Positions 13,050-60,552 of a stretch of DNA of 64,000 bases are shown piece by piece. Each line of letters begins with the position of its first letter. Position 1 is the stretch's first letter. The notes beneath the pieces were generated by a model. The model had not been told where the DNA came from, ran no database searches, and was given only the letters and a program-made list of their open reading frames with translations. The DNA comes from Escherichia phage vB_EcoM_G37-3, in the sequence record MK327941.1, one strand, 5' to 3'. Both the position numbers and the translations under genes were made by a program.

Positions 13050-13226
13050 CTAAGCACCGTCTTTCTCCTTTTTGCGTTTTTCTTTACCCGCTACACTAGG
13101 TCCACGATTGGTAATAGATCCGCTCGTTTCACCTGCTGCGATCTTCTCAGGATTGCCGCCAGCATCGCCAGCGGTCATATCTTCTTTGAGTTTATTTTCT
13201 TCAACAAACTGTTTAAATCCAATCAT
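13050..13226 (-). CDS. small protein (58 aa)
   Basis: Below track cutoff; ATGA overlap with stop of 13223..13600. Confidence 0.35.
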   Translation of the reverse strand: MIGFKQFVEENKLKEDMTAGDAGGNPEKIAAGETSGSITNRGPSVAGKEKRKKEKDGA

Positions 13227-14316: not shown

Positions 14317-15729
14317 TTAGAAAGTCATGTTATTTGCTAGCTCGTCGAGTTTTTCTCGTTTCTCGGCTTGCTGTGCGCTTTGTGGTTTAACTTGTGCATT
14401 CTCCTGATCTGCGATCTGGTTTGGAACTTCATACCAACGCTGATTTCCTTTTTTCACACCAACGTTAAACCGTGAATAGTAGTTCTTATCGCCGTAACGA
14501 GACTTGATCTGCTTCATGAGTTGGACGCCCATTTTAGCCAGGTCTTCGGTTTCGATAACACCCAACATAAAATCTGCTGTAGCCGGAAGACCTGCTGATT
14601 CAGCGGTATCACTCATGTTAAGGTCTGACGCATCCCAACCCGCGCGGGTAGTCTGTGCCGCAGTCCAACCAACAACATCCCACTTAACAAAAAATCCTCG
14701 CAGTTCTTCCGCAATCGCCTTAACTAGTGTGTAACTATTTTCAGAGTATACACGCAAGCGAGACGATGCGCAAATCCCCAGATAGTCAACAATCACAACA
14801 TCAGGTTTAAACTGTTTCTTGAGTCGCAATTCATTCATTAACGCCTCAAAGTGATTGGAGTTCGCGCCACCAGTCGGATACTGCTTGATCATCAATTTTC
14901 CAACCGGACGATCTCCGATCTTCTTATTCTTAACACGCTTCATACGTGCGGAATATTCCGCAAAAGAAACATTACCATTATCCAATTCATCTAATGTAAT
15001 GTCAAGCAAGTTTGCGTCAATACGTTTGGCTACGACATGCTCTGCCATCTCCATTGAGATATACAATACATCATAACCACATTCCATATAATCCGCAGCA
15101 AGAGAACACAATCCAAGCGATTTACCAACATTTACACCAGCAAGCAACACATTTAGCGTTTTTCTTTCCGCCCCTCCTTTCGTGATTTTATTCAACATCG
15201 GCAGCTTAAACGGGATCTTATTCGCCTTAGTCTGATATAGCAAGAATCGTTTTTCAAAGTCATTAAACCAGTCATGACCTACATCAGAATCAAACGTAAT
15301 TGATAGTGCTTCCTGCATAATCTCAGGAATAGCTCCCTCGCCAGGCAATTTCTTATTCTGTTTCTCTTTTGGTAGTTGTGCGTTCGCCTGAATCTCTAGC
15401 GCCCGTGACATTGCATTATACATGGCACGGTCACGAATAAATTTTTCGGTTTCCTTCATCAACCAATCAAGGTCTTCCGGTGTATTCTCAAGCGAATCAA
15501 GAAGAGTTTTAGCCCCTTCATATGTTGTCTGATTGCCTCTCTCCTTGTCTAAAGCAATCTGTAATGCAGTTGGCGTAGGAATATTGGAATATTCGTCTAC
15601 GTGCTTTTTAATCAGCTTATAAATCAGTTTTTCTTCGTCTTCGGTGAAGTAGTCCGCTTTAAGGTGAGGCCATACATTCGTAAAGAATGCGCCATTGTAA
15701 ATCAACTGTGAAAAGATAGTTTTAATCAT
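14317..15729 (-). CDS. 41: replicative DNA helicase gp41 (DnaB-like)
   Basis: 470 aa; Walker A GVNVGKS; DnaB-family C-terminal RecA fold; at the T4 gene 41 position. Confidence 0.92.
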   Translation of the reverse strand: MIKTIFSQLIYNGAFFTNVWPHLKADYFTEDEEKLIYKLIKKHVDEYSNIPTPTALQIALDKERGNQTTYEGAKTLLDSLENTPEDLDWLMKETEKFIRDRAMYNAMSRALEIQANAQLPKEKQNKKLPGEGAIPEIMQEALSITFDSDVGHDWFNDFEKRFLLYQTKANKIPFKLPMLNKITKGGAERKTLNVLLAGVNVGKSLGLCSLAADYMECGYDVLYISMEMAEHVVAKRIDANLLDITLDELDNGNVSFAEYSARMKRVKNKKIGDRPVGKLMIKQYPTGGANSNHFEALMNELRLKKQFKPDVVIVDYLGICASSRLRVYSENSYTLVKAIAEELRGFFVKWDVVGWTAAQTTRAGWDASDLNMSDTAESAGLPATADFMLGVIETEDLAKMGVQLMKQIKSRYGDKNYYSRFNVGVKKGNQRWYEVPNQIADQENAQVKPQSAQQAEKREKLDELANNMTF

Positions 15730-15731
15730 AC

Positions 15732-16043
15732 TTAGCCCCCAACTACACGCATAACAAAGGTCTTGAGTTTATACCAGAAAGTTTCTTTTTTCAACTTTTC
15801 TTCTGCTTCTTTGATTTGCGCGGTTAACGCCTTAATGACGTGTGGATATACCACATCACGATCTGACGGCGTGGAGTAGTCGACCACAATACCTTTAGTG
15901 TCTGGATCGTATTCAACATTATGAATATAGACAATATGATGCTCTCCCTCTTCATCAACAATTATCAATTCCTGAATAACTGTCTTCATTGCTTCTTGAA
16001 TCAAGCCGTGTGCTTCTTCTAAACTTGTTGGTTTCTTATCCAT
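15732..16043 (-). CDS. hypothetical protein (103 aa) at the T4 gene 40 position
   Basis: ATG at 16043 behind GAGAGGA RBS; assignment by position only. Confidence 0.45.
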   Translation of the reverse strand: MDKKPTSLEEAHGLIQEAMKTVIQELIIVDEEGEHHIVYIHNVEYDPDTKGIVVDYSTPSDRDVVYPHVIKALTAQIKEAEEKLKKETFWYKLKTFVMRVVGG

Positions 16044-29132: not shown

Positions 29133-29172
29133 TTCGCACCCTCGCTATTATTTAGGAAATAACCCTTTCGGG

Positions 29173-47780: not shown

Positions 47781-48179
47781 TTAAGCCAGTTGAGTGAGTT
47801 TATAAATTGTTTTAAAGCATAGAGCTTTGATATCGTCTAAAACACTCTGTAACGAGCTATCAACATCATTATAAATCTCACTAGCCATTTGCGTTAACTC
47901 TTGCAAATAGGCAATTTCGCTAATCTCCTTGCGGACGACCAACTTTGGCTGATAACGACCAGTGATCCCAATATTGGTTTCAGTGAAATTATCAACCAAT
48001 TCTTGCATTTCAAGATAGAACTCTTCTAGAGCCTTATGTTTTGCATAAGATCCAGGACCAGTTACCCCAAAATGCGCAGAATGCATATAAGTAACACTCA
48101 TCAGACATTCACCGATAAAGCGGTCAACTTTATTAGCCTTTCCCTCTTCGGACGTCTTTAGAAAATCACTGAATTTCAT
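47781..48179 (-). CDS. Dps-like (ferritin superfamily) protein
   Basis: 132 aa from ATG at 48179 behind GGAGA RBS; ferroxidase-type spacing H-x12-H-x15-D-x3-E (SAHFGVTGPGSYAKHKALEEFYLEMQELVDNFTE). Confidence 0.55.
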   Translation of the reverse strand: MKFSDFLKTSEEGKANKVDRFIGECLMSVTYMHSAHFGVTGPGSYAKHKALEEFYLEMQELVDNFTETNIGITGRYQPKLVVRKEISEIAYLQELTQMASEIYNDVDSSLQSVLDDIKALCFKTIYKLTQLA

Positions 48180-48468
48180 GTTCTCGATTCTCCATATTAT
48201 GCAACAGAACAAATTGTTGTGCGGCATATCCCCCCATAATAAAACACTGCCTAGAATCCATACATTTACTACGAGCATACATCTTCATAATATGGGCATG
48301 AAATTTCTGGCTGGTTTCAATGGAAGGAGATATTTTGTTTACATATACTATCATTGCGCCGTCGAAATAATCAGTAAAGTCACCAGTTGGATCATATTGA
48401 TCAGCACTGACACTTCCGACCGCAGTCAAGCATATTGCCGCTGTTAGAGTTTTACGAATAAATGACAT
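48166..48468 (-). CDS. secreted/periplasmic protein (100 aa) with N-terminal signal peptide
   Basis: MSFIRKTLTAAICLTAVGSVSA signal-like N-terminus; GGGGGA RBS. Confidence 0.5.
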   Translation of the reverse strand: MSFIRKTLTAAICLTAVGSVSADQYDPTGDFTDYFDGAMIVYVNKISPSIETSQKFHAHIMKMYARSKCMDSRQCFIMGGYAAQQFVLLHNMENREHEIQ

Positions 48469-48502
48469 AAGTCATTCCCCCAGATTGAAAATATTCAGTT
48501 AT

Positions 48503-48510
48503 ATTTATAA
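48503..48510 (-). promoter_or_regulatory. T4-type late promoter TATAAATA
   Basis: Minus-strand TATAAATA in the loop of a 9-bp inverted repeat CCCCAGATT/AATCTGGGG, between tk and the secreted-protein gene. Confidence 0.45.
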
Positions 48511-53327: not shown

Positions 53328-53921
53328 TTAAACGTATTCAGCGACAACATTGTGTTTAAAATTACCACTTCTTTTTGGATTTGGATTTTTCAATCGACTA
53401 TGTATTAAATTTTTGTTATATCCGGTTGCTTTAGACGCTTCTCCAATACTTTGATAAACAACACCATCAACACGAATCGGACGAGACTTATTAAACAGTT
53501 TATTCAATCCGGTATCATATGCATGGTTTTGGTTTTCTTGTCTTGTTGCGATCTCAAGATTCCAAACACAATTACAAGATTTTACCCCACTTTTATGATT
53601 AATTTCAAGCCCTTCACAATCACCTATAAAGTGTTCAGCGACTAGTCTATGAATATAGCGATATTTCTTAGTTTCCCCGTCATGCAAGCATACATTATAA
53701 TAACCATCACCAGCGCGTTTAGGTCGGAGTAGTTTACCTTTAACACGTTTTATAGTAGGGAACTCACCAAATTGATTTCGCTGGATAAAAGGAATCTCTC
53801 GGTCAAGTGAACGGATTCGACCATAGTTAGATACTTGATAAAACCCCCCATAGCCCTTAATCTGCTTCCATATCTCGGGGATTTCAACACCATCAATAAC
53901 AACAAGTTTAAGTTCTTCCAT
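53328..53921 (-). CDS. HNH homing endonuclease (NUMOD4-like plus HNH_3-type)
   Basis: YQVSNYGRIRS, HRLVAEHF...NHKSG...NLEIATRQENQNH; GAGGTG RBS. Confidence 0.85.
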   Translation of the reverse strand: MEELKLVVIDGVEIPEIWKQIKGYGGFYQVSNYGRIRSLDREIPFIQRNQFGEFPTIKRVKGKLLRPKRAGDGYYNVCLHDGETKKYRYIHRLVAEHFIGDCEGLEINHKSGVKSCNCVWNLEIATRQENQNHAYDTGLNKLFNKSRPIRVDGVVYQSIGEASKATGYNKNLIHSRLKNPNPKRSGNFKHNVVAEYV

Positions 53922-53933
53922 ATATCACCTCAT

Positions 53934-53964
53934 AAAAATAAAGCCAACCCTTTCGGATTGGCTT
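53934..53964 (-). terminator. intrinsic terminator
   Basis: Minus strand AAGCCAATCCGAAAGGGTTGGCTT followed by TATTTTTAT. Confidence 0.6.
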
Positions 53965-55075: not shown

Positions 55076-55465
55076 TTATTTTGGATCTGGGTATTTGCTG
55101 TGTGGTAGCTGAAAATGAACACCGTCTTTAAACGATACCCAATCCCCACCCCATTCAACAGGAACACCCAATTCTCGACCAGCTTGTTTAAATGCATCCG
55201 CGATCATGCGGTAGTATTTCATGTTCCATGTATCCTTATCTTTCGGATACGCTACAACATCAACCGCGAAACCGTGAAGATGACGAGATTTCATAGTCTT
55301 AGATTTACCTTCCGCAACATATTTCTTTTGCGTTTCTAGACTACGCACACCTTCCGTAATACCAAAATCGACCAGAGTCAGTTCTAACGCACGATGAACG
55401 ACTTTTACCAGATCAGGATGTACACCAACAAGCCGATCTTTGCTTCTTTGAGATAATTTAAACAT
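55076..55465 (-). CDS. endolysin, peptidase M15 family (L-alanyl-D-glutamate peptidase type)
   Basis: 129 aa; zinc-binding motifs SRHLHGFAVDV and DGVHFQL; AGGGGGTG RBS. Confidence 0.75.
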   Translation of the reverse strand: MFKLSQRSKDRLVGVHPDLVKVVHRALELTLVDFGITEGVRSLETQKKYVAEGKSKTMKSRHLHGFAVDVVAYPKDKDTWNMKYYRMIADAFKQAGRELGVPVEWGGDWVSFKDGVHFQLPHSKYPDPK

Positions 55466-55493
55466 TATTCACCCCCTTTGTGAGTGATAATAT

Positions 55494-55685
55494 TTAGATT
55501 CCGGCGATCCTGCATATAGTTCTTGTATTAGCACCAATCAGGATCGCATTAACGACAACCATTCCCCAATCAACCCACTGATTATTATAAATGCTAAACC
55601 CGTTTGCAAGACCAAATACAAGCATTCCGGTACACATACTCAGAGCAATAATCAACATCACGGTAAAACCAAATGCAAATCTCAT
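55494..55685 (-). CDS. small membrane protein (63 aa)
   Basis: Two hydrophobic segments; immediately upstream of endolysin. Confidence 0.45.
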   Translation of the reverse strand: MRFAFGFTVMLIIALSMCTGMLVFGLANGFSIYNNQWVDWGMVVVNAILIGANTRTICRIAGI

Positions 55686-55686
55686 A

Positions 55687-55902
55687 TTATTTTCCTTTTC
55701 TCTGTTTACGTTTATAAAAGTAATACATTACCTCATCGCGTCCGGTGATCCAACATGCTAGGGCGGTAAACAGGTTTACAATTCCCAACACACCTACTGA
55801 CGCGGCGCTGTCAACAGACATAGGAACAGTAAAGGCCATAGCTAACATAGCAACGCCACAAATGACATTAAGCACCATTATAATAAGACCGAAGAAAACC
55901 AT
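55687..55902 (-). CDS. small membrane protein (about 71 aa)
   Basis: Internal ATG at 55902 behind GGAGGA RBS; two to three hydrophobic segments, basic C-terminus. Confidence 0.45.
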   Translation of the reverse strand: MVFFGLIIMVLNVICGVAMLAMAFTVPMSVDSAASVGVLGIVNLFTALACWITGRDEVMYYFYKRKQRKGK

Positions 55903-55904
55903 TG

Positions 55905-56084
55905 TCAATCCTCCGACACAAGAAAACCAACAATCACGCCAGTGATAAGACATGATGCACCGCTAATCAGACAACCCGCGCCCATAGTTTCCCACCAGAT
56001 CAGAGAAGCGACAATAACACAGAATCCCCATACTACCGCAATCACAACATAGGCAAGGGTCGCCCAAAACATATATTTGTTCAT
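55905..56084 (-). CDS. small membrane protein (59 aa)
   Basis: ATGA overlap with upstream gene; two hydrophobic segments. Confidence 0.45.
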   Translation of the reverse strand: MNKYMFWATLAYVVIAVVWGFCVIVASLIWWETMGAGCLISGASCLITGVIVGFLVSED

Positions 56085-56269
56085 AATAAATCCCATTCAC
56101 CAAACAAATAAGAAAAAAGCCATATCAACAGAAACGAGGCAATTGATCCGGCAAGCAAAATGATATTAGAGAATCCGCCGTCTATCCAGGCGACAAAACA
56201 GAATACGCCAGTATAGAAGCATAAACCCATTACAAAGCATACTATAAGCAACCATAGACAAAACTCCAT
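56081..56269 (-). CDS. small membrane protein (62 aa)
   Basis: GGAGGG RBS; hydrophobic throughout. Confidence 0.45.
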   Translation of the reverse strand: MEFCLWLLIVCFVMGLCFYTGVFCFVAWIDGGFSNIILLAGSIASFLLIWLFSYLFGEWDLL

Positions 56270-56321
56270 AGAAAGCCCTCCAGCGAGATAAATTAGTGCG
56301 GGTAGTGGAATGTACTACCCG

Positions 56322-56489
56322 CTTTGTTAATCAACGCAGAGCTTCTTCTAGCGCGATCCCAAACCATCCACAAACAACGCCCATACAGACAGCTACAAGA
56401 AGATTCATTCTCTCTTTAGGGATCATTGCAATCATAACAACAACCATACAGAAAGCCATTACCATTGAAGTTAACATTTGTTCAACCAT
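56322..56489 (-). CDS. small membrane protein (55 aa)
   Basis: Below track cutoff; AAGGTG RBS; hydrophobic. Confidence 0.35.
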
Positions 56490-56491
56490 TA

Positions 56492-56830
56492 TCACACCTT
56501 TAAAGTCATAGACGCATAAACATTAATGCCAGGCCAGTTAGGATCGCAATTATACTCAACATCCCACAAATAAAGCGGTTTAGATGTATCAGCCAAGTTT
56601 TTAAAATCTTCTACCCACATTTCAAGGCTATATGATGGATAAACTAGGCTATCATATCCGCCGTAACGTTGGCCTACTGGTCGGTCAGTAAAAACTACCT
56701 CAAGATCCGGTAATTCTTTTTCAAGGATAACCGCCAGCGCATAAATCAGACGGTCTTCCTTGTTACGCTGCCGAAGGACCGTTGTCAATTGGTTTTTCTG
56801 GTTCACTAGCAAGCACCTACACATTTTCAC
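56492..56830 (-). CDS. hypothetical protein (112 aa)
   Basis: ORF on the common strand. Confidence 0.45.
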   Translation of the reverse strand: MKMCRCLLVNQKNQLTTVLRQRNKEDRLIYALAVILEKELPDLEVVFTDRPVGQRYGGYDSLVYPSYSLEMWVEDFKNLADTSKPLYLWDVEYNCDPNWPGINVYASMTLKV

Positions 56831-57083
56831 AGAATGAAATTTTCACAGACACAATTTTACCATAAGTGAAGAATGAATATACATTATCGAGATATTCAAC
56901 GTCACCTACAATCACATCAAACTGCGGATCAGCCACTGCCGCAACATATTCTACCAGTTCATCAAGAGAATGCAACTTAATTTCATCAATTCGGCTGTAT
57001 TTGGTTGCATCTTTGATTTTAAAACCACGTTCTTTCAGCTTATCAATCAGAATTTCACGCGGAGTTTCAAACAGTTTGCTCAT
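56817..57083 (-). CDS. hypothetical protein (88 aa)
   Basis: GAGGATTATATT leader. Confidence 0.45.
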   Translation of the reverse strand: MSKLFETPREILIDKLKERGFKIKDATKYSRIDEIKLHSLDELVEYVAAVADPQFDVIVGDVEYLDNVYSFFTYGKIVSVKISFCENV

Positions 57084-57104
57084 AATATAATCCTCACATT
57101 AAAT

Positions 57105-57302
57105 CTAAAATTTGTTAACGACGAATTGCATAATTAGACTAATCACAAACATTGCAAACCAAGTATAAATGCAACAGATAAAAGCTACATACAATTCAAT
57201 CTGGTCAGAGAATACACCGGGTAAAAGCATTAGCAAAATAACAACAGTAAAGACGCTAGCGATACCCGCAACAAAACCAATATCATTTTTACTAATCGTC
57301 AT
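57105..57302 (-). CDS. small membrane protein (65 aa)
   Basis: GGTGA RBS before ATG at 57302; two hydrophobic segments. Confidence 0.45.
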   Translation of the reverse strand: MTISKNDIGFVAGIASVFTVVILLMLLPGVFSDQIELYVAFICCIYTWFAMFVISLIMQFVVNKF

Positions 57303-57502
57303 CAAGTCACCGTTTTGTAAAGAAACACAATAAAATCCAAGACAAGAAAGACAGTGTAAATGATCATCGTCAAGACAGTAAACACTGTCAAATTTTCATC
57401 GTTAGTTAATTCATAGTCGCCCATCCATACAATCACAAGATATAGCATTGAAAGAATGGAAGCACCTACGAAGTTAAAAAAAACATATTCTTGAGCGTCA
57501 TA

Positions 57503-57685
57503 TTAACAACCATCGCGGCTTAAGTCAACAGCAATTGCATACAGCATAATGAATATGCTAGCAGATCCGAGAATCAATGCACCATCACATTTTGAAACTC
57601 GCTCATCAAAATGTAACATTATCCATCCGAGGATGTTAAAGGCGCAGACCGCGCCTATGTTCGCTAACCAATTAATCTTTTTCAT
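57503..57685 (-). CDS. small membrane protein (60 aa)
   Basis: AAGGT RBS; hydrophobic segments. Confidence 0.45.
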   Translation of the reverse strand: MKKINWLANIGAVCAFNILGWIMLHFDERVSKCDGALILGSASIFIMLYAIAVDLSRDGC

Positions 57686-57693
57686 AATATACC

Positions 57694-58020
57694 TTAGAAA
57701 GAAACAGTTTTCAAGAAATCCAGATTTTTAGTACCGAAAACAGAAAAGTAGTGTTTTCCTTTTTCGGTTTTAGAGAAAGCGATTGTCTTCTCTACATGGT
57801 GACGGAAGCCAGACAGACGATCACCCAGGTCAAGGCGGCAAGCGTAAGTAGTGCCGTTTTCGAAAGTAACCTCGATTTGAGTTTTGTCATATTCGCTTTC
57901 ATAGGCTTTTGCTGCCGCGTCCTGTGCTTTACGCTCGAAGTCTTCGAAGTGGAATACTTCGTTTGCGTTAGCGAATACAGAAGATTCAGAGAAGATAACT
58001 TTAACAGATACTGGTTTCAT
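57694..58020 (-). CDS. hypothetical protein (108 aa)
   Basis: AAGGAGTATCAAA leader after an early promoter. Confidence 0.5.
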   Translation of the reverse strand: MKPVSVKVIFSESSVFANANEVFHFEDFERKAQDAAAKAYESEYDKTQIEVTFENGTTYACRLDLGDRLSGFRHHVEKTIAFSKTEKGKHYFSVFGTKNLDFLKTVSF

Positions 58021-58043
58021 TTTGATACTCCTTAGTAGTTCGT

Positions 58044-58073
58044 GTTTCGTTTCGATGGGTGTATTATGCTATA
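58044..58073 (-). repeat. PeSL core repeat copy 1 (GTTTCGTTTCGATGGGTGTATTATGCTATA)
   Basis: Near-identical 30-mer recurs at about 59022 and 61012; approximate. Confidence 0.6.
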
Positions 58074-58091
58074 CACCCTCTCGCGTGTCAA
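58063..58091 (-). promoter_or_regulatory. early promoter (PeSL-type) TTGACA-N17-CATAAT
   Basis: -10 inside GGGTGTA/TACACCC inverted repeat; approximate. Confidence 0.55.
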
Positions 58092-58099
58092 CAACTTTT

Positions 58100-58288
58100 T
58101 TAGTCTTTTTTCATAATTTCTAGAGCAGTTTCTACAGCACCTTTCCAACCTTCCCACATAATGGACATAGTAAGGAAGTTAAAGCACCCGCAGGAATCAA
58201 CCTTTTTAGAGATAAACCATTCTACAAACGCTTCGCTCATACCATGCTCTTTAGCGGATTCGCGTAATTGTTCAATTTGGTCTTCCAT
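58100..58288 (-). CDS. hypothetical protein (62 aa)
   Basis: ORF on the common strand. Confidence 0.4.
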   Translation of the reverse strand: MEDQIEQLRESAKEHGMSEAFVEWFISKKVDSCGCFNFLTMSIMWEGWKGAVETALEIMKKD

Positions 58289-58310
58289 AGTATCACCTCA
58301 ACACTTAACG

Positions 58311-58505
58311 TTATTCAAACTCAAACGGTCTATTCAACCTATTGTAAAAGTACATATAACAAGCAAAATTATGCTTTGGCTGTACCGTATCAGATAGACA
58401 CGCTTTTACAGCCTCGCGGTCCGATGGGTCTACACCCTCAGCTTTAAGTAATGCTAAAATCTGGTTATAGCGTACTCTTAGTTGTACTAATGGTTTATCC
58501 CCCAT
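58311..58505 (-). CDS. hypothetical protein (64 aa)
   Basis: ORF on the common strand. Confidence 0.4.
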   Translation of the reverse strand: MGDKPLVQLRVRYNQILALLKAEGVDPSDREAVKACLSDTVQPKHNFACYMYFYNRLNRPFEFE

Positions 58506-58514
58506 ATTACCCCC

Positions 58515-58742
58515 TTATAGTTGATCAGCAATGTATGCGGTGCATTTGCGGAGTTTAGCCATAGCACCACCTTTCATGTCGCTTGCGCCTACAATGTTCA
58601 TGATCTCTAAGCGATCAGCCGGATTCAGTCTAGTAGCCAAGATCTGGTTAGCCAGTTCCATTTTACCCATCTGCGGTTCCATCTCAAACATTTCACGCTC
58701 AAAGTCGATAATTTCTTTTGCTGCGTCTTTAAAGTTAATCAT
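58515..58742 (-). CDS. hypothetical protein (75 aa)
   Basis: GGGAGGACCAAA leader after an early promoter. Confidence 0.45.
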   Translation of the reverse strand: MINFKDAAKEIIDFEREMFEMEPQMGKMELANQILATRLNPADRLEIMNIVGASDMKGGAMAKLRKCTAYIADQL

Positions 58743-58771
58743 TTTGGTCCTCCCGTTTCGTTGATGGTTGT

Positions 58772-58800
58772 ATTGTAGGGGAGTTATCCTCCCCTGTCAA
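58772..58800 (-). promoter_or_regulatory. early promoter (PeSL-type) TTGACA-N17-TACAAT
   Basis: Spacer hairpin GGGGAGGATAACTCCCC; approximate. Confidence 0.5.
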
Positions 58801-58808
58801 CACTTTTA

Positions 58809-58994
58809 TCAGAAATATGCAATATAGTTTGCCAGTCCTACAGAGTCATCATTCGGCATTGCTTTTACCGCCAGTTCAAACCCTGCTTCAACTTTCTGTT
58901 TAGCGGATTCTTCGTTATAACCCCAGATGACCAGAATAGCTACTACGTTTTCTTTGCTTACTGCTTTCAGTGCTTTAGTGATGCGACGTGCCAT
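58809..58994 (-). CDS. hypothetical protein (61 aa)
   Basis: ACGGAGAATCAAAT leader after an early promoter. Confidence 0.45.
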   Translation of the reverse strand: MARRITKALKAVSKENVVAILVIWGYNEESAKQKVEAGFELAVKAMPNDDSVGLANYIAYF

Positions 58995-59021
58995 AATTTG
59001 ATTCTCCGTTTAAGAAAGTGT

Positions 59022-59050
59022 GTTTCGTTTCGATGGGTGTATTATGCTAT
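59022..59050 (-). repeat. PeSL core repeat copy 2
   Basis: Same 30-mer as at 58044 and 61012; approximate. Confidence 0.6.
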
Positions 59051-59069
59051 AGGCGTGATCTGGTGTCAA
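59041..59069 (-). promoter_or_regulatory. early promoter (PeSL-type) TTGACA-N17-CATAAT
   Basis: Hexamers on minus strand; approximate. Confidence 0.55.
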
Positions 59070-59094
59070 CAACTTTTTTAAAAAATTTTAGGCA

Positions 59095-59266
59095 ATAAAA
59101 AAGCCACTCCGAAGAGTGGCTTATAGGGAAGGTAGCGAATCTTCCTTATCTCCAACCTGCTAGCGGCCTAGCAAGTGAATGCTTTAGCGTACCGGATCAC
59201 CCCCATACGCTGTAATAAATGCGGCTAGGTGACGTCCAAATCATTCTAACCGCGCTGTCTTTAGTT
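59095..59266 (-). ncRNA. candidate structured small RNA (about 170 nt) behind a late promoter
   Basis: No ORF longer than 14 codons; four predicted hairpins (GCGGTTAG/CTAGCCGC, AGCGTA/TACGCT, GCTAG/CTAGC, GGAAG/CTTCC); ends in terminator GCCACTCTTCGGAGTGGC plus T-run. Confidence 0.4.
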
Positions 59267-59271
59267 CACTA

Positions 59272-59490
59272 TTATTTATATCGCTTTCTCTCGCGACGTT
59301 TTTGATCTTCTTCCTTGATAGAGTTAAACGCATCAAAAAGACACATGACACTAATAATAAACATAACCGTATTTTCTACGATATCCCACGGCTTCGCATC
59401 GGTACAGATTCCCCAAACTGTAAGAAATGCAAATAGTGCAGAAGAGATCACAAGCATGATACTTGCTAAGATATAAAAAGTCATTTTCAT
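59272..59490 (-). CDS. small membrane protein (72 aa)
   Basis: Two hydrophobic segments, basic C-terminus; ATGA overlap with upstream gene. Confidence 0.45.
   Translation of the reverse strand: MKMTFYILASIMLVISSALFAFLTVWGICTDAKPWDIVENTVMFIISVMCLFDAFNSIKEEDQKRRERKRYK
59273..59280 (-). promoter_or_regulatory. T4-type late promoter TATAAATA
   Basis: Exact TATAAATA on minus strand overlapping the last codons (Y-K-stop) of the upstream gene. Confidence 0.5.
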
Positions 59491-59669
59491 GGTTTTACCT
59501 CAATTCTTCGATATTCATCACACATCCACGCAGTAAGCAAGAATCCCAACACATAAGCAACAAAATACGTTAATGCTTCTTCTGGTTTCGTGCTATGTAT
59601 CATCAGTAAACCAGCGAGAACGGTCTTAACAATTGCATTTAAAATAATTAACCACGCAAATAATTTCAT
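59487..59669 (-). CDS. small membrane protein (about 60 aa)
   Basis: Internal ATG at 59669 forms ATGA overlap with upstream stop. Confidence 0.45.
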   Translation of the reverse strand: MKLFAWLIILNAIVKTVLAGLLMIHSTKPEEALTYFVAYVLGFLLTAWMCDEYRRIEVKP

Positions 59670-59890
59670 CGTTTGCCCCATTTCGGTCGAGTCTTTTCAA
59701 ACTTATACATTCCGTAACAATCTCGAATCATCCACGTAACAAGAGCACCAGTCAACACAGACAATACACAGAAGAAGTAAAACGGTCCGGTTGCATTATC
59801 AACATGAGCAAGCCAGGTAAAGAAAACACATGCAAGGAATGTAAAGAACATCATAAAACACAAGAAAGCAAAATATTTTATGCTACTCAT
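59666..59890 (-). CDS. small membrane protein (about 74 aa)
   Basis: Track start reads TTG; internal ATG at 59890 preferred; two hydrophobic segments. Confidence 0.4.
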   Translation of the reverse strand: MSSIKYFAFLCFMMFFTFLACVFFTWLAHVDNATGPFYFFCVLSVLTGALVTWMIRDCYGMYKFEKTRPKWGKR

Positions 59891-59993
59891 AGCGCCACCA
59901 TACAACAGATCATAAGAAAACCCAACGCAATAAGAATTGCATCAAATTTAGTGAACTCAGATCCACCTATCAACATCATTCGTTCCTGTTCAT

Positions 59994-60236
59994 TCATAGA
60001 TCACAGAGCCATCTTAAAGCACCACATAAAGCGATCAAAAGACTAGGTATAAACGAGACTAAAACAAGACTACAAAAATCATCTAAGGTAACGCCGGAAT
60101 AGCTACCTACTGTAACAACACCGATCATCAGACACAGAAAGAAAACAAATGCAATCAGAAACAAAGTATTGCTAAACAGTTTAGTGATCATTAGACACCC
60201 CACGACGATCAATTTCAAAAACTTTTTTACCATCAA
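59994..60236 (-). CDS. small membrane protein (start uncertain)
   Basis: Hydrophobic ORF overlapping upstream ORF; track start reads TTG. Confidence 0.4.
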   Translation of the reverse strand: MMVKKFLKLIVVGCLMITKLFSNTLFLIAFVFFLCLMIGVVTVGSYSGVTLDDFCSLVLVSFIPSLLIALCGALRWLCDL

Positions 60237-60384
60237 CGAAGCATGTCACAACTGCCTCGTTGACTTCCGCAAATTGTTGTGTTACCCACTTAAGGTCAGA
60301 GCGAAACAATGTTCTATTAATAACAAATGTTTTACCTTTCTTATCCATACCCATAAATTTTGCTTTAACCATATCCAATTCCAT
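60181..60384 (-). CDS. hypothetical protein (67 aa)
   Basis: ORF on the common strand. Confidence 0.4.
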   Translation of the reverse strand: MELDMVKAKFMGMDKKGKTFVINRTLFRSDLKWVTQQFAEVNEAVVTCFVDGKKVFEIDRRGVSNDH

Positions 60385-60393
60385 ATTATCACC

Positions 60394-60552
60394 TTATTTG
60401 CTAATCGCTAAACCCAATCCGAAGAGAGCACCCGATGCTACAGTATACCCGAAAGTTTCAAAGGAAGTAAAGATATCTAAGCCGCCAGCTAACAGAGTTG
60501 CTGTAAACAGAGTACCAGCTACGAACATAAAAGTTTTACCGATAAATTTCAT
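60394..60552 (-). CDS. small membrane protein (52 aa)
   Basis: Below track cutoff; AAGGAGAATCAAA leader after an early promoter; Gly-rich hydrophobic. Confidence 0.35.
   Translation of the reverse strand: MKFIGKTFMFVAGTLFTATLLAGGLDIFTSFETFGYTVASGALFGLGLAISK

Follow-up and report, generated by a model that had tools for sequence, protein, structure and literature searches.

Gene content of the locus

The window, i.e. the whole 64,000-nt stretch of DNA analysed here, is part of the genome of a Krischvirus, one of the RB49-like relatives of T4; Krischvirus genomes are 97-98% identical to it at the nucleotide level. The gene order in the window is vs.6, vs.8, endolysin, variable region, 57B, 57A, 1, 3, and the T4 counterpart is vs.6, vs.8, denV, ipII, ipIII, e, nudE, e.2-e.8, tRNAs, 57B, 57A, 1, 3. 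By synteny, the window endolysin takes the place of T4 gene e, with vs.8 on one side and the variable region, which ends at 57B, on the other. The nudE, tRNA and internal-protein genes that T4 has in this interval are absent from the window, and Rfam and tRNA scans of the window gave no matches. As summarized in Table 1, five small membrane-protein genes (here P1-P5) lie directly upstream of the endolysin gene. The first-pass annotation had placed them on the same strand as the endolysin gene, and all of them were indeed found on the minus strand.

Table 1. Features of the endolysin locus and related elements, in order of window position
Feature	Position	Strand	Description
RI antiholin homologue	48166..48468	-	PF24205 Antiholin, 3e-23, 81.9 bits
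Hairpin with T-run, first downstream of endolysin	53941..53964	-	Annotated as a terminator in GEC-3S and G2494
Hairpin just past endolysin stop codon	55030..55062	-	-18.6 kcal/mol, z -5.4; no U-tract; conserved in 8 genomes
Endolysin	55076..55465	-	129 aa; zinc L-alanyl-D-glutamate peptidase (M15C)
RNA hairpin	55455..55500	-	Pairs a promoter-like stretch with the endolysin Shine-Dalgarno (GGGGGUGA) and AUG
Late-promoter-like TCTAAATA	55491..55498	-	7/8 positions of the T4 late consensus TATAAATA; overlaps the P1 TAA stop
P1	55494..55685	-	63 aa; two hydrophobic segments; arginines at both termini; PHROG 15016, no assigned function
P2	55687..55902	-	71 aa; two hydrophobic segments; strongly basic C-terminal tail YKRKQRKGK; PHROG 15232, no assigned function
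P3	55905..56084	-	59 aa; two hydrophobic segments; acidic C-terminus; PHROG 16151, no assigned function
P4	56081..56269	-	62 aa; two hydrophobic segments; no Lys/Arg; four Cys; PHROG 19354, no assigned function
Stem-loop between P5 and P4	56298..56322	-	-16 kcal/mol, z -4.96; no U-tract
P5	56331..56489	-	52 aa; two hydrophobic segments; basic connecting loop PKERMN; PHROG 16035, no assigned function
Remaining island	57105..60552	-	Nine more small hydrophobic ORFs among small soluble ORFs and dmd
Island ORFs	57105-57305, 57302-57448, 57503-57685	-	Small hydrophobic
Early promoter, sigma-70-type	58063..58091	-	TTGACA-17-CATAAT; nearest strong one upstream of the minigenes
Island ORFs	59272-59490, 59487-59681, 59666-59905	-	Small hydrophobic
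Island ORFs	59887-59997, 59994-60236, 60394-60552	-	Small hydrophobic

The endolysin is the known enzyme of the genus

The endolysin had been assigned to the M15 peptidases rather than to the T4 e-type lysozymes, which was borne out by motifs and by Pfam, PHROG and PDB matches. The protein carries SRHLHGFAVDV and DGVHFQL, with the H-x6-D and C-terminal H motifs of the zinc site present. It matches Pfam Peptidase_M15_4 (6.8e-12, 46.2 bits, cut-off 25), the endolysin family PHROG 465 (5.5e-67) and, over residues 1-129, the PDB chains 8q2g_A (4.6e-84) and 23ri_A (6.3e-84). These structures represent the EndoRB49 / LysECD7-type peptidase, which resembles the window endolysin in its 129 residues, its full-length near-identity (E about 5e-84), its identical H-x6-D and H zinc-site motifs and its lack of an export signal. 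Compared with 8q2g, the window endolysin has a few substitutions only, e.g. L31P, F66L and P102S. EndoT5 (2mxz) and Serratia ChiX (5opz) are more distant relatives. The RB49 enzyme is an L-alanyl-D-glutamate peptidase (PMC8140593, PMC10487532), and near-identity to it suggests that the window endolysin would cleave the L-Ala-D-Glu bond (PMC8140593). The endolysin is the already known, structurally and biochemically characterised enzyme of the genus, and there is nothing new about the window's copy. A non-homologous peptidase thus replaces the T4 lysozyme at the same map position. By hydropathy, the endolysin has no signal, membrane or hydrophobic segment; since it lacks an export signal, its release must depend on the T-type holin of the phage.

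Structure and coupling of the minigenes

It had been proposed that each minigene product has one to three hydrophobic segments. The membrane character was confirmed, but the range was not: two hydrophobic cores were found in every minigene by Kyte-Doolittle analysis, the transmembrane calls being hydropathy-based only. The basic connecting loop of P5 suggests that its orientation is opposite to that of P1 and P2. As to C-terminal charge, P2 has seven Lys/Arg residues in its last 21, P1 is weakly charged (two Arg), and P3, P4 and P5 are acidic or short. A tandem duplication origin of P1-P5 was rejected; no pair is more similar than shuffled controls, and the five are not paralogues.

The tight ATGA or TGA-ATG coupling described earlier for the whole array holds for part of it. 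The start codon of P3 overlaps the stop codon of P4 as ATGA, and the P3/P2 (TGAcaATG) and P2/P1 (TAAtATG) junctions are nearly abutting, but P5 and P4 are uncoupled, being separated by a 61-nt spacer with a conserved stem-loop. P5 is instead coupled to an upstream soluble ORF (TGAtaATG). The gap between P1 and the endolysin gene is 28 nt. Each of P1-P5 has a Shine-Dalgarno-like sequence or a coupled start. In the spacer, the stem GCGGGTAG/CTACCCGC is conserved, with single end substitutions in some genomes, and carries four different loop sequences. This stem-loop is probably an mRNA structure or a weak attenuator rather than a full terminator.

Conservation and distribution of the minigenes

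Each gene was compared among nine sequences (the window and eight phage genomes) and four metagenome contigs. P1-P5 are intact in seven to nine of the nine sequences, depending on the gene, and in the four contigs, and every genome and contig seen has them in strictly the same order. Third codon positions carry a disproportionate share of the substitutions. The pN/pS ratios span 0.13-0.52 when the phage genomes are compared with each other and 0.24-0.49 when a more divergent relative is used (respectively 0.26 and 0.24 for P1, 0.13 and 0.32 for P2, 0.24 and 0.30 for P3, and 0.22 and 0.49 for P5), with P4 having the highest ratio of the five among the phage genomes (0.52). For P2, P3 and P5, the ratio stays well below 1 even at 14-21% nucleotide divergence. 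P2 is the best conserved of the five; its second segment and tail are identical in an 80%-identical variant. P5 is the most variable, with 84% nucleotide identity in JSE and ELT4, and the divergence is mosaic from gene to gene, P5 being 84% identical where its neighbour is 99% identical. P4 was removed by a 145-nt deletion in phage ELT4 and has a 1-nt homopolymer frameshift in phage Whisky; this gene is naturally dispensable. As judged from their substitutions and distribution, P1-P5 are genuine genes under purifying selection, restricted to this genus.

Searches for relatives agree with this narrow distribution. Among 5.8 billion proteins, P1 has only six relatives, none of them less than 86% identical, and an exhaustive HMMER search with P2 against 1.84 billion representatives returned only its own cluster and a likely spurious 285-aa match. 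A concatenated tblastn search of 50,697 phage records revealed no homologues of P1-P5 outside the genus, only Krischvirus records; the identity values from this search are not meaningful, since the five genes are in different reading frames. P1-P5 matched nothing in Pfam, NCBIfam or the functional PHROGs. Holin models gave best E values of 0.18-0.96, far below the cut-off, and there was no match to a PHROG of the lysis category. A homology search of the window with T4 e.2-e.8, trna.4, Imm, Sp and 61.x gave no match on P1-P5. Elsewhere in the window, the search with T4 small proteins found only dmd, 61.1 and a weak Sp-like match.

Transcription signals

The early promoters at 58063-58091, 58772-58800 and 59041-59069 share a common extended consensus, and matching sites are annotated as promoters in GEC-3S. 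A further candidate at 55880-55908 (TTGACA-17-TATTAT, 11/12 matches) was rejected as probably coincidental because it lies within a coding region and has neither the conserved leader nor the A-rich upstream element that the three real early promoters share. It is likely that an early transcription unit runs from 58091 through P5-P1, the endolysin gene, vs.8 and vs.6 and ends at the hairpin at 53941-53964.

The late-promoter-like TCTAAATA is invariant in 13 genomes and contigs, and no other late-type motif was found between 55.5 and 59.27 kb. Since it overlaps the stop codon of P1, a transcript starting there excludes P1-P5. One position of the motif deviates from the consensus, and at this position most T4-like phages are described as rarely having C (PMC1524935). 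In GEC-3S, the 70 nt upstream of gene 37 and those upstream of the holin gene t contain the variant CTAAATA and no other late-like motif. Among the ten CTAAATA sites in about 132 kb, four lie 25-45 nt upstream of a start codon; the remaining six are outside such positions, five of them within coding sequence. A literature search for transcriptomics found no Krischvirus expression data, and the early or late timing given here is a prediction from sequence motifs. By these motifs, P1-P5 would be transcribed early.

A hairpin over the endolysin start resembles that of T4 gene e

The leader hairpin of the endolysin gene folds with -12.5 kcal/mol (z -3.4) in the window form and with -17.8 kcal/mol (z -4.95) in a divergent lineage, in which codon 3 has an A-to-G change that closes a C-G pair; the hairpin is backed by thermodynamics and this one stem-strengthening change, with no compensatory double changes. 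For RNA from the predicted late +1, no structure is seen (-3.8, z 0), and the T4 e leader folds with -15.1 (z -3.7). In a longer read-through RNA, the hairpin would mask the ribosome-binding site and the start codon of the endolysin gene, while a short late transcript from TCTAAATA alone would allow translation. The endolysin may thus be translationally gated as at T4 e, where the late promoters are reported (McPheeters et al. 1986) to be part of a hairpin by which the ribosome-binding site is hidden in the early read-through RNA.

The two loci share the map position, a variable block of small early ORFs followed by the gene of a soluble endolysin, and a late-type motif in the 5' arm of a hairpin over the Shine-Dalgarno sequence and AUG, with comparable folding energy. 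They differ in that T4 has a muramidase and two exact copies of TATAAATA, whereas the window has a non-homologous peptidase and TCTAAATA. T4 e.2, e.3, e.4, e.7 and trna.4, upstream of e, also have hydrophobic segments. It is possible that the T4 e-style control, with a late promoter inside a start-masking hairpin, was rebuilt or retained around a non-homologous endolysin. If this is true, a locus can keep its regulatory design after the gene under that control has been replaced.

Lysis genes are dispersed as in T4

The first-pass annotation had read the locus as a clustered holin/antiholin/pinholin cassette, unlike the scattered lysis genes of T4. This is not supported, as the lysis genes are scattered as in T4 and no minigene matches a holin family. 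In GEC-3S, a 218-aa product encoded at 154079-154735, after the tail-fibre genes, matches Phage_holin_T (4.5e-61, 206.7 bits). The T holin and spanin genes lie outside the window, and their presence in this phage is inferred from relatives that are 97-98% identical in the compared region. Inside the window, the gene of the RI antiholin homologue is preceded by a canonical late promoter TATAAATA at 48502-48509; at this position, the Phi1 annotation has rI and rI.-1. A T4-type lysis-timing system is present and is located away from the endolysin. The T4 i- and o-spanin families include RB49, Phi1 and JSE (PMC6139136), and the genes that the SSG23 authors name as holin (ORF 227), endolysin (ORF 101) and spanins (ORFs 261/262) are scattered over that genome (PMC12533011). 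The T-type holin, the RI antiholin and the PseT.3/PseT.2-type spanins would be encoded apart from the endolysin, as in T4. It had been stated that a T4-like t homologue together with dispensable minigenes would speak against the cassette; the t homologue exists and P4 is naturally lost, which bears this out in part.

It is nevertheless worth weighing whether at least one of P1-P5, most plausibly P2, acts as a holin, pinholin or antiholin together with the adjacent M15 endolysin and replaces or adds to the T holin. The minigenes are on the same strand as the endolysin gene and directly adjacent to it, P4 to P1 are translationally coupled, and the order is kept in every genome and contig seen. 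P2, two genes upstream of the endolysin gene, combines two membrane segments with a highly basic C-terminal tail, which is the outline of a class II holin. In Sashavirus Solent, whose endolysin is the closest one outside the genus, the endolysin gene sits between two small genes annotated as holin or antiholin. However, the complete T4-type set (T holin, RI, spanins) is present, no minigene matches a holin family or resembles the Solent holins, and P3, P4 and P5 have no charged C-terminal domain. Moreover, the sole late-type motif lies downstream of the P1 coding sequence while the upstream promoters are of the early type, P1-P5 are only five of the 14 minigenes of a wider island, and P4 is deleted in ELT4. 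A holin role for a minigene is thus improbable.

Class II holins and pinholins, e.g. S68 of phage 21, resemble the minigene products in their 60-75 residues, two membrane segments and endolysin neighbour, and P2 also in its basic tail. The minigenes differ from them in having no family match and no late promoter upstream, in four of the five products lacking a strongly charged tail, and in the presence of a canonical T holin. In addition, the window endolysin lacks the signal-anchor-release domain that pinholins serve. No homology was found between the minigenes and the holin or antiholin genes flanking the Solent endolysin gene. Membrane minigenes as regular companions of M15 endolysins were likewise rejected: in Pseudotevenvirus Miller and Certrevirus F5M1E, the products of the upstream genes that were checked are mostly soluble, with one hydrophobic N-terminal segment among them. 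A membrane segment and adjacency to an endolysin are features of P1-P5 but are not specific, as nine further such genes lie up to 5 kb away. Small membrane genes beside the endolysin in T4-like genomes should not be called holins on that ground.

A wider island of membrane minigenes

In total, 14 membrane minigenes lie at 55.49-60.55 kb, against about seven ORFs with membrane segments or signal peptides in the remaining ~59 kb (Fisher test, p about 2e-7, from approximate, hand-assembled gene counts). The enrichment is real but wider than the five-gene block first reported. Most of the nine further island ORFs are annotated as putative membrane proteins in W115, and 57105-57448 is occupied by a different gene in JSE, Whisky and SSG23. 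This region resembles the hyperplastic regions of RB49 and Phi1 (Arbiol et al. 2010, PMC2839356), with a variable block of ORFans, repeated early promoters of sigma-70 consensus, adjacent G/C-rich stem-loops, and genes gained, lost and replaced between close relatives. The element class of promoter and stem-loop was described there for RB49 and Phi1, and the P4-P1 block of the window differs, as no promoter of this class lies inside it; the candidate ending at 55908 does not have the extended consensus. Neither these minigenes nor their membrane character is treated in that paper (PMC2839356). The island, with its 14 conserved, genus-specific small inner-membrane proteins, is a target set for phage-host membrane interactions such as exclusion, counter-defence and membrane takeover.

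Possible roles of the minigenes

Overall, I consider it fairly likely that the locus consists of the known endolysin in the T4 e slot and of minigenes for early accessory inner-membrane proteins of the variable region, which are not a holin block. P1-P5 would be inner-membrane proteins, each a hairpin of two hydrophobic helices, encoded at the downstream end of the 5-kb hyperplastic 14-gene island. Their products would be made early, inserted in the host inner membrane and act there as accessory factors. They might plausibly exclude superinfecting phages as T4 Imm does, or modulate proteins of the host membrane or of host defence; the minigene products are probably neither the holes nor the timers of lysis. 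The fallback idea of the first-pass annotation, superinfection-exclusion membrane proteins, is closer to what the evidence favours than the cassette, although the activity as accessory factors is itself deduced. Little changes overall, since the endolysin was already characterised and the lysis system is T4-like.

T4 Imm, an 83-aa early inner-membrane protein for superinfection immunity that is encoded by a single gene, has two membrane segments, and its C-terminal tail is charged. P2 and the products of 59272-59490 and 59666-59905 share its two-segment, charged-tail outline; they differ in having no sequence similarity to it and in belonging to an array. P2 is the only one of the five with a predicted holin-like or Imm-like outline. 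T4 Imm matched 989 records of the phage collection. In the 64-kb window, tblastn with T4 Imm gave nothing better than E=3.7, and P1-P5 gave no match to an Imm-family Pfam at E up to 1. Since no Imm homologue is detectable in the window, the Imm function may be supplied by something else.

Could the minigene products instead be subunits of a single hetero-oligomeric inner-membrane assembly formed by P4 to P1, with or without P5, e.g. an early small channel or a membrane-remodelling device? Stop and start codons that overlap or abut suggest stoichiometric co-translation, nearly all genomes strictly retain the genes and their order, and the five proteins are unrelated to each other, as distinct subunits would be. 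On the other hand, ELT4 has lost P4 and retained the others, the mosaic divergence of P5 and its neighbour argues for independent exchange, and tight packing is usual for T4-type early genes. Such an assembly is therefore unlikely. It is equally doubtful that P1-P5, or the coupled P4-P1, form a Krischvirus membrane module tied to the M15 endolysin, in which P2 would be a second holin-, pinholin- or antiholin-like regulator alongside the T holin or the products would make up a viroporin-like complex. Lastly, it is very improbable that P1-P5 are chance hydrophobic frames or decaying remnants without function: their very small size, the lack of homologues outside the genus and of a family assignment, and the deletion of one copy in one phage speak for this, but all five are intact in the compared genomes and contigs except for P4 in ELT4 and Whisky, each has a translation start signal or a coupled start, their substitutions favour third codon positions with pN/pS well below 1, and the second membrane segment and tail of P2 are unchanged in its 80%-identical variant.

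The minigenes belong to a variable membrane-gene island

The minigenes P1 (nearest the M15 endolysin gene) to P5 (farthest) are real genes restricted to the genus, and each encodes an inner-membrane protein with two predicted helices. They lie at the downstream end of a plastic, probably early island that holds 14 genes of this type. As the first-pass annotation had described, five small same-strand genes lie upstream of the endolysin gene; this part of the window has genes on the minus strand only. Hydropathy-based transmembrane calls gave two hydrophobic cores for each of the five. The annotation had read them as a holin/antiholin/pinholin block clustered with its endolysin. Is the link specific? 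Between 55.49 and 60.55 kb I found 14 small hydrophobic genes, five of them P1-P5, whereas the other ~59 kb have about 7 ORFs with membrane segments or signal peptides (Fisher p about 2e-7, on approximate gene counts). The island (55490-60552, minus strand) packs its 14 ORFs of 36-80 aa within 5 kb, and the enrichment is a property of the whole variable region, not of the endolysin flank.

The other lineages examined have M15 endolysins without P1-P5 genes. The lysis loci of related phages, a comparison proposed in the first-pass annotation, did yield a classical holin, endolysin, holin, spanin cassette in Sashavirus Solent, which has the closest endolysin outside the genus (63% identity), but P1-P5 are unrelated to the Solent holin candidates. 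The upstream neighbours of the M15 endolysin in Pseudotevenvirus Miller and Certrevirus F5M1E are soluble, the one exception being a Miller ORF whose N-terminal segment is hydrophobic. The minigenes fill a variable interval corresponding to that upstream of T4 e, which also has ORFs with hydrophobic segments (e.2, e.3, e.4, e.7, and trna.4); none of these is known to have a lysis role.

The block is also plastic. P4 was lost through a 145-nt deletion in ELT4 and is frameshifted at a homopolymer in Whisky; another gene replaces the two minigenes of 57105-57448 in JSE, Whisky, and SSG23; and P5 is only 84% identical in genomes whose adjacent ORF is 99% identical. Such behaviour resembles that of the ORFans of the RB49/Phi1 hyperplastic regions (PMC2839356). 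Because of the wider enrichment, the M15 endolysins lacking these neighbours, and this plasticity, the link of the minigenes to the endolysin is not specific. In the same region, the ORF at 56817-57083 (minus strand), an ORF109 homologue, is 18 aa shorter due to a GAG-to-TAG change relative to GEC-3S at 56817-56819, a position at which none of the eight phage genomes compared has a stop; the GGAGGTG Shine-Dalgarno sequence of the following ORF is altered as well.

Features of the endolysin locus and related signals
Feature	Position	Strand	Properties
Endolysin, M15 peptidase	55076-55465	minus	129 aa; Pfam and PHROG profile matches
P1	55494-55685	minus	63 aa; two hydrophobic cores
P2	55687-55902	minus	71 aa; two hydrophobic cores
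P3	55905-56084	minus	59 aa; two hydrophobic cores
P4	56081-56269	minus	62 aa; two hydrophobic cores
P5	56331-56489	minus	52 aa; two hydrophobic cores
RI antiholin	48166-48468		within the window; PF24205, 3e-23
Early promoter, sigma-70 type	59069	minus	common extended consensus
Early promoter, sigma-70 type	58800	minus	common extended consensus
Early promoter, sigma-70 type	58091	minus	common extended consensus
Predicted hairpin, window form	55455-55500	minus	-12.5 kcal/mol; z -3.4
Hairpin, divergent lineage			-17.8 kcal/mol; z -4.95
RNA from predicted late start			-3.8 kcal/mol; z 0
T4 e leader, folded the same way			-15.1 kcal/mol; z -3.7

Dispersed lysis genes and the role of the minigenes

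The lysis genes are not clustered, and the contrast drawn with the scattered ones of T4 does not stand. In GEC-3S (98% identical in the region), the tail-fibre genes are followed directly by one for a 218-aa protein that matches Phage_holin_T (4.5e-61). An RI antiholin gene was found, with an exact TATAAATA 33 nt upstream of its start codon. RB49, Phi1, and JSE are listed among the T4 PseT.3 and PseT.2 spanin families (Kongari et al., PMC6139136), and in SSG23 the holin, endolysin, and spanins were assigned to ORF 227, ORF 101, and ORFs 261/262, respectively (PMC12533011). Neither the T holin nor the spanins are encoded within the window; both are assigned to this phage from close relatives. 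A T4-like holin t homologue together with dispensable minigenes had been named as speaking against the cassette; of this, the homologue was found in GEC-3S, and one minigene, P4, is naturally missing from ELT4. Hole formation and lysis timing most likely come from the T holin, RI, and spanins, and it is improbable that P2 or its partners act as a holin/antiholin.

An early accessory role for P1-P5 is the reading I favour with fair confidence. It could consist in superinfection exclusion, as by T4 Imm, or in interference with membrane or defence proteins of the host. The outline of Imm recurs in P2 and two further genes of the island, while no Imm homologue was found anywhere in the window.

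The tight coupling ascribed to the five genes holds for P4/P3 (an ATGA overlap) and for P3/P2 and P2/P1, which abut as TGAcaATG and TAAtATG, but not for P5. Between P5 and P4 are 61 nt with a stable stem-loop (-16 kcal/mol, z -5), and the coupling partner of P5 is a soluble ORF on its upstream side. That P1-P5 form a single hetero-oligomeric complex is doubtful. The stem GCGGGTAG/CTACCCGC (56298-56322, minus strand) is conserved across genomes, with single end substitutions in some, while the loop of 7-9 nt has four different sequences and a U-tract is absent; it may act in processing or stability, or be what is left of a promoter plus stem-loop cassette. P3, P4, and P5 (55905-56489, minus strand) have 3-4 cysteines each, mostly in or beside hydrophobic segments, and P4 lacks Lys and Arg entirely, an unusual trait in a membrane protein obeying the positive-inside rule.

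It is very unlikely that P1-P5 are spurious ORFs. Each is intact in 7-9 of nine compared sequences (the window and eight phage genomes), with mostly third-position substitutions and a pN/pS of 0.13-0.52. The 52-62-59-71-63-129 gene order persists in a more divergent metagenomic lineage (nucleotide identity 79-92%), where the minigenes have a pN/pS of 0.24-0.49. Judged from these patterns, P1-P5 are real genes.

Fifty-eight phage records match the 3-kb region at 97-98% identity, 57 of them over at least 80% of its length, and every classified record inspected (Sf20, GEC-3S, ECD7, Phi1, RB49, JSE, and others) belongs to the RB49-like genus Krischvirus. Each minigene has its own small PHROG of unknown function. 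Pfam and NCBIfam searches gave no match, and a concatenated tblastn against 50,697 phage records found nothing beyond the same 58. P1 has six relatives among 5.8 billion proteins, all at least 86% identical, and an exhaustive HMMER scan of 1.84 billion representatives returned only P2's own cluster. When T4 e.2-e.8, trna.4, Imm, and Sp were tested against the window, none matched P1-P5. At the sequence level, P1-P5 are orphans and are not paralogues of each other. The stretch at 14470-14661 (minus strand) has a weak similarity (E 0.02) to T4 Sp (spackle), with 27% identity across 73 aa, and, since it is near a 61.1 homologue (13059-13190), may be a syntenic sp gene.

The endolysin in the slot of T4 e

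The identification of the endolysin as an M15 peptidase was borne out. The protein contains the motifs quoted for it, matches Peptidase_M15_4 (6.8e-12) and the PHROG 465 endolysin family (5.5e-67), and over its full length matches the solved structures 8q2g and 23ri (E about 5e-84). No hydrophobic segment was found in its sequence. The RB49 endolysin has been described as an L-alanyl-D-glutamate peptidase (PMC8140593, PMC10487532), and the endolysin of the window is, by sequence, an already known enzyme.

In T4-style annotation, the Phi1 order is rI.-1, rI, tk, vs, vs.1, regB, nrdC.11, vs.6, vs.8, ORF102 (the endolysin), ORF103-125, 57B, 57A, 1, 3, 2, 4, 53, 5. The T4 order is vs.6, vs.7, vs.8, denV, ipII, ipIII, e, nudE, e.2-e.8, tRNA genes, ipI, 57B, 57A, 1, 3, 2. 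Since the two orders correspond, the M15 peptidase lies in the map slot of the T4 lysozyme gene e, and gene order makes it an in-place replacement of e by a non-homologous enzyme. Placed as T4 e is on this map, the endolysin is probably also regulated as e is. Where T4 has nudE, e.2-e.8, the tRNA cluster, and ipI, the window has the island; no tRNA genes or Rfam hits were found in the window.

Insertions were seen nearby. A 197-aa HNH/NUMOD4-type homing endonuclease gene (53328-53921, minus strand) between nrdC.11 and vs.6 matches its counterpart in the metagenome contig L017 at 96% identity; Phi1, GEC-3S, W115, and G2494 do not have it. Directly downstream of the endolysin, JSE and Whisky have an unannotated 191-aa ORF, while L017 and another compared sequence, L015, have a 175-aa HNH-type homing endonuclease.

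Predicted transcription and translation signals

The three predicted early promoters share an A-rich upstream stretch, TTGACA, a 17-nt spacer, and a -10 hexamer followed by ACACCCATCGAAACGAAAC, and the GEC-3S annotation marks promoters at the corresponding sites. No T-run terminator was found between 58091 and 53941-53964, so the early unit is expected to take in P5-P1, the endolysin, vs.8, and vs.6. The extended consensus is missing from a promoter-like match at 55908, which is probably fortuitous.

Across nine genomes, the 37-nt spacer separating P1 from the endolysin does not vary. In the predicted fold, the promoter-like stretch pairs with the endolysin Shine-Dalgarno sequence and AUG; a change from A to G in codon 3 lets a C-G pair close in the divergent lineage. 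The hairpin of the T4 e leader is built in the same way, although the T4 enzyme is non-homologous. In T4, this design blocks e translation on early read-through RNA, and by analogy the hairpin would block the endolysin start site on such RNA here. If so, the adjacent minigenes and the endolysin would be expressed at different times.

The promoter-like stretch, TCTAAATA at 55498-55491, overlaps the TAA stop codon of P1 and is the sole motif from 55.5 to 59.27 kb with at most one mismatch to the T4 late consensus. In GEC-3S, the CTAAATA variant precedes both gene 37 and holin t (positions 15953 and 19038 of sequence L003), as TCTAAATA and CCTAAATA, respectively; no other late-like motif occurs within 70 nt upstream of either gene. 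Ten CTAAATA sites occur in the roughly 132 kb examined, four of them 25-45 nt ahead of a start codon. The sites before gene 37 and holin t and these four argue for a functional variant, while the reported rarity of C at this position in most T4-like phages other than Aeh1 (PMC1524935) argues against it. The canonical NATAAATA precedes gp53, gp9, gp15, gp18, gp20, gp22, gp23, and gp24. The late-promoter and hairpin arguments draw on motif matches, folding energies, and conservation within a set of genomes that are close relatives. Another CCTAAATA, at 29149-29156 (minus strand), is closely flanked by a hairpin upstream and a start codon downstream and is a further possible late promoter with the C variant.
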